64,000 bases of DNA from Escherichia coli (lineage in GTDB: Bacteria > Pseudomonadota > Gammaproteobacteria > Enterobacterales > Enterobacteriaceae), in NCBI RefSeq assembly GCF_003334305.1, contig NZ_QOWS01000003.1, one strand, 5' to 3'. Positions 10,788 through 17,973 of this stretch are shown piece by piece (the stretch's first letter is position 1; every line of letters begins with the position of its first letter). Both the position numbers and the translations under genes were made by a program. Under the pieces are notes generated by a model. It made no database searches. It was not told the DNA's origin and saw only the letters and a list, made by a program, of their open reading frames with translations.

Positions 10788-11618
10788 CTATTTACCAATA
10801 TAATTCCATTCACCATTTTTTAATTCAAACAGTTCTGGAAGAGATGACGGTTGCAGAGTCATGCGTTTGAGTGGCGCATCTTCATCACCGGGGATAACGT
10901 TATATCCCATTTTTGCATGGATCTCCGCGGTACCGGGATAGGCTTCTATACCAATTATTGGGTCATTTCCCATTCCAATATTAGCATTAAGTAATGCGGC
11001 AAGGGCGAATCCGGAAGAATTTGCTACCCCTGAGACAGTTATTATCTGATCAATATAGATATCAATTCTTGGCTGCTCATTGGTCCATCTTTTTGCCTGA
11101 GAAACTGGAAGGGTTGAAATATATCCTATCGTGGTTCCGGCGTAACCTGGAACATTGCAACCAGGGCCTAATGTTATTTCATGAACTGTATAGTCCTCAA
11201 CAGGATCGAAAGGGCTCTTCATAAATAAATTTAGCCGTAAACCTTCTGCTAATTCTGTAGCAGCATGCGCCTTTTTACATATACCACCATATATTTCGTC
11301 TAAAGCTGAGGTGATTTTCAAGTTTCGATAGAGCATACGTCCTGTTGTTGTAATACCATCGGATTCTCTGCATGCTTCTGTCACATAATTAAATGGCCAG
11401 GACTCTTTACTAATATCAAGTTTTCTAATTTCGACAACGCTTTTTCCATCGTAATTATGGTTATTGCCACGAGCAAGAGGCAGAAGATAGATATTTTCCG
11501 TATCCAGGCGAGCTCGTTCATATTTACGTGTTAACTCATTGTCGACTTTTGGGTGATGAAGGAAGTGATTATCTGTAATAATTTGACTCTGAAGGGCATT
11601 GCTTAATGGCATAGACAT
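10788..11618 (-). CDS. yjiC: Uncharacterised protein YjiC
   Basis: 276-aa ORF; AT-rich coding sequence flanked by AT-rich non-coding DNA; same position as K-12 yjiC between uxuR and iraD. No recognisable domain by eye. Confidence 0.75.
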   Translation of the reverse strand: MSMPLSNALQSQIITDNHFLHHPKVDNELTRKYERARLDTENIYLLPLARGNNHNYDGKSVVEIRKLDISKESWPFNYVTEACRESDGITTTGRMLYRNLKITSALDEIYGGICKKAHAATELAEGLRLNLFMKSPFDPVEDYTVHEITLGPGCNVPGYAGTTIGYISTLPVSQAKRWTNEQPRIDIYIDQIITVSGVANSSGFALAALLNANIGMGNDPIIGIEAYPGTAEIHAKMGYNVIPGDEDAPLKRMTLQPSSLPELFELKNGEWNYIGK

Positions 11619-12290
11619 AATAGTTACCTTTTAGGAGTATTTCACTGATGTTTAGAAAAATAGATAAATTTTTCTGTAGTAAAAAGAGAAGTAAACAAAT
11701 GACATGCATGTTTCTGTTGTAGTGATATCAACTCTACACGGTGATATTAAAGGGTAGGAAACACTCTAAAGTATCAAAAAACGCTCATTTGAAATTATTT
11801 TCATGCAATTAAAAAGCATATCTTATTACTAATTGGAATTTGATGTTGCTATATTGATGTCTATATTAATAATGCCTGTGAATGGTATTTTTGATGTATT
11901 TGATATGTTATCAATTTATATTATTTACAAACTAATTGTTTCAAATAATACATGGCTGATTATGCGGAAATAAATAATTTCCCACCGGAATTAAGTAGCA
12001 GCGGTGACAAGTATTTTCATCTACGTAACTATTCGGAATATTCAGAATATACTAGCGGTTTTTTTTTGAGTTTGATGATTTTTATCAAATCATGACTTTT
12101 TTCCTGAAAAGTCAGTAGATATTCATAGGCAAGTAAGGTTTTATACTTTGCTGACAGGATTCAGGCCTGTCTCAGACTGACATGGATGTAATGAACAAAA
12201 GGGAATGGCTATGGAAAATGAGCATCAATACAGTGGTGCCCGGTGTTCAGGGCAAGCCGCATATGTTGCTAAACGTCAGGAGTGCGCAAA

Positions 12291-12683
12291 ATGATGCGCC
12301 AATCACTTCAGGCTGTTTTACCTGAAATTTCAGGCAATAAAACGTCATTGCTGCGTAAATCGGTATGCAGCGATCTCCTCACTCTTTTTAATTCTCCTCA
12401 TTCGGCATTACCGTCATTACTTGTTTCAGGCATGCCAGAGTGGCAAGTGCATAACCAGAGCGACAAACATCTCCAGAGCTGGTATTGCCGTCAGCTGCGT
12501 TCTGCACTGTTATTTCATGAGCCACGGATTGCGGCGTTGCAGGTTAATTTTAAAGAAGCGTACTGCCACACTCTGGCGATCAGCCTTGAGATAATGCTGT
12601 ACCACGACGGTGAACCGCTAACGTTTGATCTGGTCTGGGATAATGGCGGTTGGTGTAGTGCGATGCTGGAGAATGTCAGCTAA
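12291..12683 (+). CDS. iraD: Anti-adaptor protein IraD (inhibitor of RssB-mediated RpoS degradation)
   Basis: 130 aa starting [17 protein letters not shown]; recognised IraD; long AT-rich upstream leader region. Confidence 0.85.
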
Positions 12684-13587
12684 GCACAATCTCCAGCTCG
12701 CGCAGTTCACGCCAGAAGCGTTCGGCAACTGGATTCATGCGGGTATTCATTCGGTATGCATAGGCCTGAATCGGGATCACCAGTTCGTCCCGATTCAGTA
12801 CAACGAGCTTCCCGCTGCGAATTTCTTGTTGGATGGCGTACTCCGGCAGCCAGGCAATCCCACAGCCGTCGAGGGCAACCTGCTTTAAAAGCTCGCTCAT
12901 CGAAGAGACAAAAAAGGTGCTGAAACTTAACTCACTGTGGCGCGTCAGGGTGCGATTAATCAATCGCCCCATGTAGGAGTTGCGGCTGTAATTCAGTAAC
13001 GGAAAGTGTGGCTGCGCGAGGTTAAAAAGTGCTTCTCCGTGTTCGTCACTGGCGCAGACAGGGAACAATTGAGATTCAAATAAGCGAATGTGGTCAAACG
13101 GCGCTTCCAGCAAATCTTCGTCGTGAAAGGAAAAAATACAGTCACTTTGCCCTTCACGCAGTTTATCGACCGCTTCATCGACATCAATAGCTTCAATTGC
13201 CCAGGTAAAGAGCGGCGGCATCTGGCTGATAATGGACGGTAACAGCCCGAGGGAAAGAGAGTGTGCAGCGGCTATCTTGATTTTTCGTTGCGCGTAATCG
13301 CTGCCGCCACGCAGCTCTGCCAGATTGCTCTCTAACTGTTGCAACAGATGGCGGATCTGCGAATGGAAGATTTTCCCTTGTTCTGAGAGTTGCAGCGGCG
13401 TTACCTGGCGGTTAAACAATTCAACACCAATCGCCTGTTCCAGCGCACGGATGCGGCGGCTGAATGCCGGTTGCGAGACGTTGCGACTGACTGCCGCCTG
13501 GGAAAAATTGCGGCATTTTTCCAGGGTCAGAAAATCATAAAGCCATTTGGTTTCAATATTATGCAAAATCGCACCACAGTCATCCAT
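12676..13587 (-). CDS. hypT: LysR-family transcriptional regulator (hypochlorite-responsive HypT/YjiE)
   Basis: 303-aa ORF with N-terminal LysR HTH ([29 protein letters not shown]); 3' end overlaps the iraD 3' end by 8 nt (convergent). Confidence 0.85.
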
Positions 13588-13651
13588 TACGTTTTACTCT
13601 GTCAGCCGCCCTTGCGGGCATTCTACGTCCATTCGGGCGGCTGACAACCGT

Positions 13652-14824
13652 TTAAGCCGTTTCAAACGTTCCATTCACGCAGGCTTTGCCGTCTTTGACC
13701 ATCAGTTTGCCGCGAGCGTATACCTGCTCAATGCGCAGTTCTGGCGTCATGACCAGCAAGTCAGCATCATTGCCTGGCAGAATTTCGCCTTTCCCGGTCA
13801 GGTTAAGGAAACCGGCTACGCTACTGGTGAGCGGGCGCAGGGCATCGCTGATACTGAAATCATAGTCTTTGACCAGCACCTGCACGGTTTCCAGCAACGT
13901 TTCAAAACCGGCAACACCGATATGGGTTAAATTCCCTTCGTCATCGAAGAACGGCTGGCTACCGTTGCCGTCGGAGCTGAGGGTGACGCGTGCCAGCGGA
14001 ATACCCGCCTGAACGGCGCGGGCAATACCTTCGGCAGGGGCGACCGGTTCGTCAATGCTGCTGGTGATATCGATAGTGCCGCCTTTGCGCGCGAACTCCA
14101 GCGCCTGCTCAAACAACGGAACGTTGCGGTTAACGTGGGTCGGCAGCAACTTGCTGATCGGCACATCGCAGTTTTCCAGCAGGTCATAGACAGGCTGTAA
14201 CGCCTTTTTGCTGTCGCCCATGTGGAACACGGTGACGCCAGGTTTACCGCCGAGCAAACCGCCAACGCGGGATTCCGCCGCCATATTAGCCAGGTGATAA
14301 ACGTCCGGTGCGGCAGAACGGTGATCAGAGATGGCGCATTTCACGCCAATCACACGATCGATAATCGCCACGTCTTTTTCCACGGAACCTGTAATGGTGC
14401 GGGAAGGGACATGATAAGCGCCGGTCAGCATCCAGGCGCTGATGCCTTCTTCATTGAGCGCACGGGTCTTGGCGAGCAGGGATTCCGGGTGGCGAGAGAT
14501 AGAGTCGGTGCCCAGCAGACCAACCACTGACGTGACGCCCGCTTCCGTCAGGCGACTTAGCGCCACTTCTGGCGTGCGCGTCGTGGGACCTGCTTCGCCG
14601 CCACCACCAATCAAATGGACGTGTTGATCAATAAAACCAGGACAGAGGATCTGCCCGCTGAGATCGACAACCGTGCAGTCCGGTACAATGTCAGAAGGGA
14701 TATTGCTGGCAACGGCGATAATTTTGCCGTTAGCGACGAGGACATCGCAAATTCCCCGATCTTCCGGCGCATACAAATGCGCTCCCTGCAGCAGGGTAAA
14801 ACCGGCTGCGGTATAATCAATCAT
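13652..14824 (-). CDS. iadA: Isoaspartyl dipeptidase
   Basis: 390-aa ORF; amidohydrolase-superfamily features (HVHLIGGGGEAG metal-binding region); recognised IadA. Confidence 0.9.
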   Translation of the reverse strand: MIDYTAAGFTLLQGAHLYAPEDRGICDVLVANGKIIAVASNIPSDIVPDCTVVDLSGQILCPGFIDQHVHLIGGGGEAGPTTRTPEVALSRLTEAGVTSVVGLLGTDSISRHPESLLAKTRALNEEGISAWMLTGAYHVPSRTITGSVEKDVAIIDRVIGVKCAISDHRSAAPDVYHLANMAAESRVGGLLGGKPGVTVFHMGDSKKALQPVYDLLENCDVPISKLLPTHVNRNVPLFEQALEFARKGGTIDITSSIDEPVAPAEGIARAVQAGIPLARVTLSSDGNGSQPFFDDEGNLTHIGVAGFETLLETVQVLVKDYDFSISDALRPLTSSVAGFLNLTGKGEILPGNDADLLVMTPELRIEQVYARGKLMVKDGKACVNGTFETA

Positions 14825-16227: not shown

Positions 16228-16782
16228 ATGGCAAAGTACAACGAAAAAGAGTTGGCGGATACGAGCAAGTTTTTAAGTTTTGTCCTCCGACACAAACCGG
16301 AGGCGATTGGTATCGTACTTGACCGTGAAGGATGGGCGGATATCGATAAGCTCATACTTTGTGCCCAAAAAGCGGGCAAGCGGTTAACCCGTGCATTGCT
16401 GGATACTGTGGTTGCCACCAGCGATAAAAAGCGTTTTAGTCATTCCAGTGATGGTAGGTGCATCCGCGCGGTTCAGGGGCATTCGACTTCGCAGGTCGCC
16501 ATTTCCTTTGCCGAAAAAACACCGCCACAGTTTCTCTACCACGGTACGGCAAGCCGTTTCCTTGACGAGATAAAAAAACAGGGGCTGATTGCAGGGGAGC
16601 GTCATTACGTACATCTCTCTGCTGATGAAGCAACGGCACGCAAAGTGGGAGCAAGACACGGATCGCCGGTTATCTTAACCGTCAAAGCACAGGAAATGGC
16701 GAAACGAGGCATCCCTTTCTGGCAAGCGGAAAACGGGGTCTGGCTGACATCAACGGTTGCTGTTGAGTTTCTTGAGTGGTAA
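16228..16782 (+). CDS. kptA: RNA 2'-phosphotransferase (Tpt1/KptA family)
   Basis: 184 aa from [29 protein letters not shown]; recognised KptA. Earlier in-frame Met codons in the 210-aa ORF are rejected. Confidence 0.85.
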
Positions 16783-16794
16783 GGGAAACACTCC

Positions 16795-17973
16795 TCATGA
16801 AGTGACCACTTGCAGCTTAAATAATTGTACTGTGCTGATAAGCGCAGCAATAAACAACGCCGCCGCGCCGCAGAGAGTGGCGCCGGCAAGCGCCGATGTT
16901 CCATTGCCGAGCATACTGGTCAGCGCCGGGCCGAGGATTTGTCCAATGCCGTAAATGAGCGTCACAAAGCCTAAAAGATTGAGATTTCCCGGAACGCTCA
17001 GTTGGCGGGCGATAGTCATCACCAGAGATGTCGTGCCCATAAAGGTACCGCCAAAACCGATACTACTAATGATAAGCAAGAGAGGAGAGTCGCTGGCGAG
17101 AGTAAGCAGCACACTGATAGCCTGCACCAGCAAATTCGCCGTCAGGCAAGGCAAAGCCCCCCAACGTTTTGCTGCCCATAGCCAGCCAAAGCAGCCTGGC
17201 ACAATTGATAAGCCGACTAACGTCCAGAGATGGGCGGTTAACAATGGTGAGCCTGCATCTTTCGCCATGAGCGGCAGGTAAGTCGCGACGATGATATAAC
17301 CAAATCCCGCAAGGCCGTACAGAATAGCCAGTAACCACCAGCTCATTATCTGTTGCTCCGTTTTTGCCAATGGCATTGGTGCGATGGCGTGTTTTTTCGA
17401 GGGCATTAAAAGCGTAAGTGCAATCAGCATCATGCCAGAAAGCGCCCCGGCGCCTTGCCATAACGTTTGCGAGGAGAAGGCAAAATGCAGGCCTGCCAGA
17501 ACATATTCGTTGCCCAGTGCAATGCCAATGCCAACGCCAGAAAACAAAGCTGCCAGCACAAAAGGATGGCGCGTGTGCTGCATAATCAGCGTCGAACCAA
17601 AAATCAGCATACCGGCGCTGGCGACACCCGCCAGGAAGCGAATCAATAACACCAGAATAAATGGCGGCAACCATGCCATTGCGAGGATCAACAACCCGCT
17701 CGCCAGGGCAGAAACCAACAGTAATGGGCGCAGGCGCGACGGCTGGTGAAATGCGCCAAACGAAAATAGCAGACTGCCAGCCAGATACCCCGCATAGTTG
17801 CCGCTGGCAATCCACGAGAGCTGGCTAAATGAAAACGCCCCTTCCGCCATCATGACGGGCAACATAGGCGTATAAAGGAAGCGACCTAATCCCATACCTA
17901 AGGTCAGAACCAGCATCCCGAAAAGCGCGGTGCTGAAAGAAAAGCGTTCTACGGGATGCGAGGACGAAGGCAT
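16795..17973 (-). CDS. yjiJ: MFS-type transporter YjiJ
   Basis: 392-aa polytopic membrane ORF; recognised YjiJ; convergent with kptA. Confidence 0.85.

Follow-up and report, generated by a model that had tools for sequence, protein, structure and literature searches.

The convergent genes iraD and hypT of Escherichia coli share the last 8 nt of their coding sequences, and we found that this overlap lies in the middle of an imperfect palindrome from which either strand can form a 17-bp hairpin whose loop holds both stop codons. We tentatively propose that the iraD and hypT transcription units both end at this palindrome, as a shared 3′ boundary. The proposal draws on the stability and rarity of the hairpin, on the hairpins found at other convergent junctions, and on what is known of convergent termination in E. 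coli.

An overlap embedded in a coding palindrome

We analyzed a 64,000-nt stretch of E. coli DNA, referred to below as the window. The features at and around the junction are as follows.

12211–12294, + strand: idlP leader peptide, translationally coupled to iraD (RefSeq annotation; PMC5574718, PMC11228462)
12291–12683, + strand: iraD CDS, anti-adapter protein IraD, 130 aa, with a TAA stop at 12681–12683 (sequence, ORF list, RefSeq annotation)
12596–12675, − strand: C-rich, G-poor stretch (C 36%, G 17%; composition), corresponding to the initial 80 nt that read-through from hypT would produce, antisense to the 3′ end of iraD
12658–12703, both strands: imperfect palindrome, a 17-bp hairpin on either strand (folding and repeat search)
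12676–12683, both strands: convergent CDS overlap of 8 nt, TCAGCTAA (sequence and RefSeq annotation)
12676–13587, − strand: hypT (yjiE) CDS, LysR-type hypochlorite-response regulator, 303 aa (sequence, ORF list, RefSeq annotation)
12765–12799, both strands: second, perfect 12-bp inverted repeat, CUGAAUCGGGAU...GUCCCGAUUCAG, within the hypT CDS, 82–116 nt beyond the iraD stop (−19.4 / −18.7 kcal/mol)

A sequence-only reading of this DNA had placed the iraD stop codon 8 nt inside the 3′ end of the oppositely oriented hypT, and the sequence, the ORF list and the RefSeq annotation all confirmed this arrangement. The TGA stop of hypT is the complement of 12676–12678 in the raw sequence. On the IraD side, the overlap TCAGCTAA comprises the last two bases of codon 129, codon 130 and the stop; on the HypT side, it comprises the last two bases of codon 302, codon 303 and the stop. 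The annotated iraD start is the ATG at 12291, and the GTG at 12282 given in the ORF listing sits upstream of it. IraD residues 21–106 matched the Pfam family GPW_gp25, and HypT matched HTH_1 (residues 14–72) and LysR_substrate (residues 99–297). The pair therefore consists of two genuine genes on opposite strands, with Pfam domains and curated names, that share 8 nt of coding sequence. iraD is transcribed as part of the unit ytiCD-idlP-iraD (PMC5574718; PMC11228462), in which AZT raised ytiC 260-fold and iraD 14-fold (PMC11228462).

RefSeq/PGAP also has both CDSs overlapping by these 8 nt in NZ_CP027342.1 and in one K-12-like strain. A 1.6-kb query around the junction was 100% identical to NZ_CP027342.1 and found matches in 5,396 of 5,426 complete E. 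coli genomes. At greater distance from this locus, the coordinates of NZ_CP027342.1 drift by up to ~130 nt relative to the window, and the two are not identical throughout. Elsewhere in the window are a gene for penicillin G acylase (~27.6–30.2 kb) and the hpa (4-hydroxyphenylacetate) operon (~34–45 kb), neither of which is known from K-12, so that the DNA comes from a strain other than K-12. The iraD–hypT overlap is already known, in that it stands in the public annotation of thousands of genomes at a published locus. Among the ten annotated convergent junctions in the window it is the single case of overlapping CDSs; the next tightest, yjiJ/kptA, has a 12-nt gap.

The palindrome is made entirely of coding sequence. 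Its left arm (12658–12676) corresponds to IraD codons 123–128, its 9-nt loop (12677–12685) contains the stop codons of both genes, and its right arm (12686–12703) corresponds to HypT codons 301–296 plus one base of codon 295. The 46-nt hairpin core (12658–12703) folded with −25.3 kcal/mol on the + strand and −24.2 kcal/mol on the − strand. A 50-nt segment around it gave −26.8 and −24.3 kcal/mol (z = −6.0 and −4.35), and none of 200 shuffled sequences was equally stable. When every 46-nt window of the 64-kb sequence was folded on both strands, four sites (0.04% of the 46-nt windows) proved equally stable on both, and the junction hairpin was the sole coding one. The other three are all intergenic; they lie in the iadA–hypT spacer (13601), in a REP-like pair (38691) and between the convergent lgoD and opgB (50701). 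When 5,000 random 18-mers drawn from the window were substituted for the left arm, none matched the energy of the junction hairpin, which indicates that the hairpin is not a chance feature. The arms encode protein tails that lie beyond the Pfam domains or right at their margins and that differ between genera, so that the coding sequence here is able to accommodate a palindrome. We rejected the idea that the two ORFs had been extended into an ancient intergenic terminator, since both proteins keep a conserved length and every overlap-type lineage has the arms within coding sequence.

The sequence-only reading had overlooked the palindrome, and the literature that we searched contains no description of it. 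At most it would be a further case of a hairpin-type bidirectional terminator, unusual only in its all-coding make-up with both stop codons in the loop.

Junction forms and hairpin variation across Escherichia

The junction coincides with the GimA locus, which lies between yjiD (iraD) and yjiE (hypT) and for which GimA+, remnant and GimA-negative patterns have been described (Homeier et al. 2010, PMC2878320). The window has the GimA-negative pattern, as does K-12: iraD adjoins hypT, and neither pptE/ptsP nor ibeA sequence intervenes. A contiguous overlap-type junction was present in 4,880–4,881 of the 5,426 complete E. coli genomes. In 512 genomes, ptsP/pptE sequence lies between iraD and hypT and there is no overlap; some of these carry a ~420-nt pseudogene remnant and others the full 20-kb island, which contains nhaC, ibeA, dhaR, gcl, dhaKL and ptsP. 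These counts (~4,880 / 512) agree with the three published patterns. The overlap and the two-armed palindrome occur together in the GimA-negative pattern only. Homeier et al. 2010 (PMC2878320) mention neither the CDS overlap, nor the palindrome, nor the altered C-termini of both proteins. They also reported that direct repeats are absent at GimA, whereas we found a short imperfect repeat, GCAG(T)AAATG / GCAGAATAATG, shared by the two island borders, which bears on the question of insertion versus deletion of GimA. The sequence signatures of the island-free junction would fit both an ancestral state and a deletion product.

Remnant and GimA+ strains have a divergent IraD allele of 127 aa with about 75% identity, which ends in ...WHRTMPQ. 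We considered residual pairing between the iraD end of these strains and the hypT end and rejected it, as its −7.1 kcal/mol is at background level. The two iraD alleles are ~75% identical at the amino acid level, yet the flanking hypT is ~96% identical between the window and five loci of the other type. K-12-type iraD has yjiC-ytiCD-idlP upstream, and the type found in GimA+/remnant E. coli and in other Escherichia species adjoins uxuR directly. This allele pattern suggests that the whole uxuR–hypT segment was replaced through recombination. Three GimA+ strains carry an orphan 'AATGTCAGCTAA' beside hypT, 20 kb from their own iraD, and this orphan corresponds to the final codons of K-12-type iraD together with the stop.

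In all junction variants, the breakpoints of homology fall inside the palindrome (12672–12687). Together with the orphan beside hypT and the border repeat, they could be taken to mean that the palindrome is a DNA-level site, either a protein-binding operator or a GimA insertion target or scar, instead of an RNA element. We give this explanation little credence: GimA contains no integrase or mobility genes (island gene content; PMC2878320), no protein is known to bind the palindrome, and only the island-free form has the two-armed palindrome, which therefore cannot be an intact attachment site flanking the island.

We identified hypT orthologues at 73 species loci, and iraD was the neighbor of hypT in Escherichia only; IraD homologues are essentially restricted to this genus. 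In Citrobacter and in Salmonella enterica subsp. arizonae and diarizonae, hypT is convergent with a racemase-like gene across a 7-nt gap. E. whittamii has a 21-nt iraD–hypT overlap and no junction hairpin, and at one Escherichia locus iraD is mostly deleted. In E. albertii and three Escherichia-like contigs (L092–L094), hypT is deleted, with 'GTCAGCTAA' and the last four hypT codons retained. Judging from this distribution, the overlap signature is old in Escherichia and the junction is evolutionarily labile. The second inverted repeat at 12765–12799 (codons LNRD...IPIQ) was found in Escherichia hypT only and extends to 13 bp in E. whittamii. In Citrobacter, Salmonella and Hafnia, the orthologues lack it, and it is missing from those of genera without a convergent iraD. 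A 605-nt contig labelled Bacillus coahuilensis m4-4 (NZ_ABFU01000118.1) encodes E. coli IraD at 95% identity and the C-terminal 29 residues of HypT at 100%, and it is almost certainly E. coli contamination of that assembly.

We then compared the hairpin across six distinct alleles, all from E. coli, a sample that gives a covariation test little power. Among the 17 base pairs, 15 were invariant, two were broken by SNPs and none showed a compensatory change. The commonest stem-breaking change is synonymous (CTG to CTT or CTC in IraD codon 126) and lowers the stability to about −16 kcal/mol; the identity band of the weakened-stem alleles holds roughly a quarter of the overlap-type genomes. SNP density was equal in the hairpin (4/46) and in the flanking coding DNA (57/670). 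These comparative data give no support for selection on the hairpin structure. In the E. coli genome NZ_CP117020.1, a natural change of CTCC to CTAC creates a TAG in hypT, so that HypT has 298 aa, a 7-nt gap replaces the overlap and the hairpin is reduced to −12.7 / −15.5 kcal/mol.

The uncompensated stem SNPs and their background-level density favor a neutral origin, in which both features of this rearrangement-prone junction, overlap and palindrome, arose by accident and have no role. They would then be by-products of island gain or loss, and possibly of template-switch 'correction' of a quasi-palindrome, and the two weakly expressed transcripts would continue into the opposite gene until terminated by Rho, to no measurable effect. 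We regard this account as nearly as likely as a shared boundary. It is in keeping with the high plasticity of the junction, where the genes overlap by 8 nt or, in E. whittamii, by 21 nt, are separated by a 420-nt remnant or a 20-kb island, or are reduced to one by deletion of hypT or of iraD, and where a hypT nonsense allele abolishes the overlap. The data sets that we searched record no 3′ ends or dsRNA at the locus, and most convergent E. coli operons have overlapping 3′ ends anyway. What speaks against a neutral origin is that a hairpin of a strength seen in 0.04% of the 46-nt windows lies exactly on the junction, that no random left arm reproduces it, and that each alternative junction has a hairpin of its own.

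Hairpins are indeed common at convergent junctions. At eight of the ten in the window, we found a hairpin of −16 kcal/mol or below on both strands. Of the two alternative convergent junctions that the island creates, iraD/ptsP has an unrelated hairpin, AACGCGATACG...CGTATCGCGTT (−20.9 / −22.0 kcal/mol), and the nhaC/hypT junction of GimA+ strains has another, CCGGATGGA...TCCATCCGG (−22.4 / −21.0 kcal/mol). From these sequences, the presence of a separate hairpin at every alternative junction of the GimA locus looks like a recurring requirement. The yjiJ/kptA junction (16782–16795), with its 12-nt gap, has no strong hairpin (best −13.1 / −12.0 kcal/mol) and provides a contrast case for near-spacerless convergent pairs.

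At the other end of hypT, the spacer between the iadA stop and the hypT start contains a very strong hairpin at 13601–13646, GTCAGCCGCCC...GGGCGGCTGAC (−30.1 / −27.3 kcal/mol). It is kept in Escherichia lineages without hypT (L089 and L092–L094), and there it becomes the point at which iraD and iadA converge. The hairpin includes the region's best sigma-70-like site, TTGTCA-16-TAGAAT (13647–13620, − strand). This spacer hairpin could act as the iadA terminator, as a control on hypT transcription, or as both.

Transcript ends at the junction

A scan of 11600–14000 for canonical intrinsic terminators returned no terminator-like site. The junction hairpin has the G+C-rich stem-loop of an intrinsic bidirectional terminator and lacks the U tract, which is absent directly 3′ of the stem on both strands (flanks ...GGTGTAGT and CAGTTCACG...). 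Rfam at a permissive threshold detected no family in 10.5–15 kb; the lone match was a chance hit to a snoRNA (E = 0.13). The sequence-only reading had argued that each transcript must enter the partner gene. This is borne out: each stop codon lies within the partner CDS, so a complete mRNA cannot end before the partner gene and extends at least 8 nt into it. As 11600–14000 contains no canonical intrinsic terminator, the real 3′ ends must lie within the partner gene.

The same reading had raised the possibility of mutual antisense interference. This holds as a matter of logic, but a regulatory effect is unsupported, with no paper linking the two genes and no dsRNA or 3′-end entry. Our literature search for a link between iraD and hypT/yjiE, including expression coupling, returned nothing relevant. 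Neither gene has an entry in the p19 dsRNA-capture tables, and both are weakly expressed in those conditions; likewise, the tables of Adams 2021 Term-seq, SMRT-Cappable-seq and TRS contain no entry for iraD or hypT. Complementary 3′ ends occur in 276 of 370 E. coli K-12 convergent operons, with a mean of 286 nt (Conway et al. 2014, PMC4161252). Such complementarity is the norm in E. coli, and the arrangement alone therefore implies no regulation.

We accordingly consider it unlikely that convergent transcription couples iraD and hypT negatively, whether by polymerase collision or by RNase III cleavage of a sense/antisense duplex, such that iraD induction (DNA damage, starvation) would lower HypT and vice versa. 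Coupling of this kind would be consistent with the obligatory entry of both transcripts into the partner CDS with no canonical terminator, with the strong inducibility of the iraD unit by AZT (PMC11228462), and with the excludon-type and convergent interference established elsewhere. Against it stand the lack of any data connecting the two genes, p19 capture tables included, and the short overlaps predicted from the hairpin and the Rho-type composition described below. In addition, the genes lie 0.4–20 kb apart in ~10% of E. coli genomes, mainly of GimA+/remnant lineages, and some Escherichia lineages lack hypT entirely. With the junction so labile, any iraD–hypT coupling must be dispensable.

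The sequences show the overlap, a rare hairpin that the other junction types lack, and analogous hairpins in those types; from these we infer all that we say of transcription at the iraD/hypT junction. The 8-nt overlap is the usual state of the junction in E. coli strains without the GimA (ibeA) island. There, no intergenic spacer remains and the two reading frames run into each other, both ending in the loop of a 17-bp palindrome made of the variable C-terminal codons of IraD and HypT. The hairpin, present in both transcripts, may pause RNA polymerase and position head-on collisions; alternatively or additionally, it may stop 3′–5′ exonucleases. In that case, the stable mRNAs of the two genes would share only ~45 nt of complementarity. 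Polymerases that pass the hairpin would make untranslated antisense RNA, which Rho would terminate within a few hundred nt. The stretch at 12596–12675, which hypT read-through would transcribe first, resembles a Rho loading site in its base composition. Such an arrangement would insulate iraD and hypT instead of coupling them. If the junction hairpin is like those at other convergent junctions, it would limit rather than promote read-through.

Several findings count against a shared boundary. Neither gene has experimental 3′ ends in the Term-seq, SMRT-Cappable-seq and TRS data. The stem shows no covariation and background-level SNP density, and it is weakened in natural alleles. E. whittamii combines a 21-nt overlap with the lack of a junction hairpin. 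Moreover, both arms are translated, so a ribosome at the stop codon would melt the hairpin, and any co-transcriptional action should be weakened accordingly.

Relation to known convergent systems

One described class of bidirectional terminators between convergent E. coli genes encodes hairpins, has no likeness to intrinsic terminators, and works independently of Rho by pausing polymerases and positioning head-on collisions (bioRxiv 10.1101/2022.10.23.513370). The model case of the overlapping type is ynaJ-uspE (Wang et al., bioRxiv 10.1101/2022.10.23.513370). The iraD/hypT junction resembles these overlapping bidirectional terminators (Ju, Li & Liu 2019; Wang et al.) in being a convergent junction with a hairpin in both transcripts and no U tracts. 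It differs from them in that there is no intergenic DNA, the arms are coding, the stop codons lie in the loop and ribosomes must melt the hairpin. The likeness is one of sequence, and collision dependence and Rho independence belong to the known class.

Convergent units with overlapping transcripts are the rule in E. coli (Conway et al. 2014, PMC4161252), and iraD/hypT follows it. The overlaps in that study are those of transcripts running across intergenic terminators, whereas at iraD/hypT the CDSs themselves overlap. Excludons and RNase III-processed pairs (PMC12288877, PMC7154746, PMC7373196) share with iraD/hypT the opposite orientation of neighbors and an obligatory transcript overlap. 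Their long overlap, reciprocal expression and RNase III products were not found for iraD/hypT in the p19 tables or in the literature searched.

As it stands, the iraD/hypT overlap is of little consequence: it is a catalogued feature of a well-studied locus, in an organism in which overlapping 3′ transcript ends are the norm. The published work on iraD regulation that we found used 5′ fusions without the iraD 3′ end (PMC5574718), and for this reason an effect of the 3′ hairpin on the fate of iraD or hypT mRNA would have escaped notice. The boldest explanation, which we consider improbable, would make the palindrome a bidirectional terminator that is under selection, responds to translation and is built wholly from the last codons of two genes. 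If this were true, a ribosome at either stop codon would melt the hairpin, and read-through would scale with translation of the upstream gene. Translation of iraD, set by CsrA via idlP coupling, would then provide a condition-dependent antisense link from RpoS stabilization to HypT. Meanwhile, the natural forms of the junction, with a strong hairpin, a weakened hairpin, a remnant or an island, offer ready isogenic-like comparisons for the study of spacerless convergent termination.
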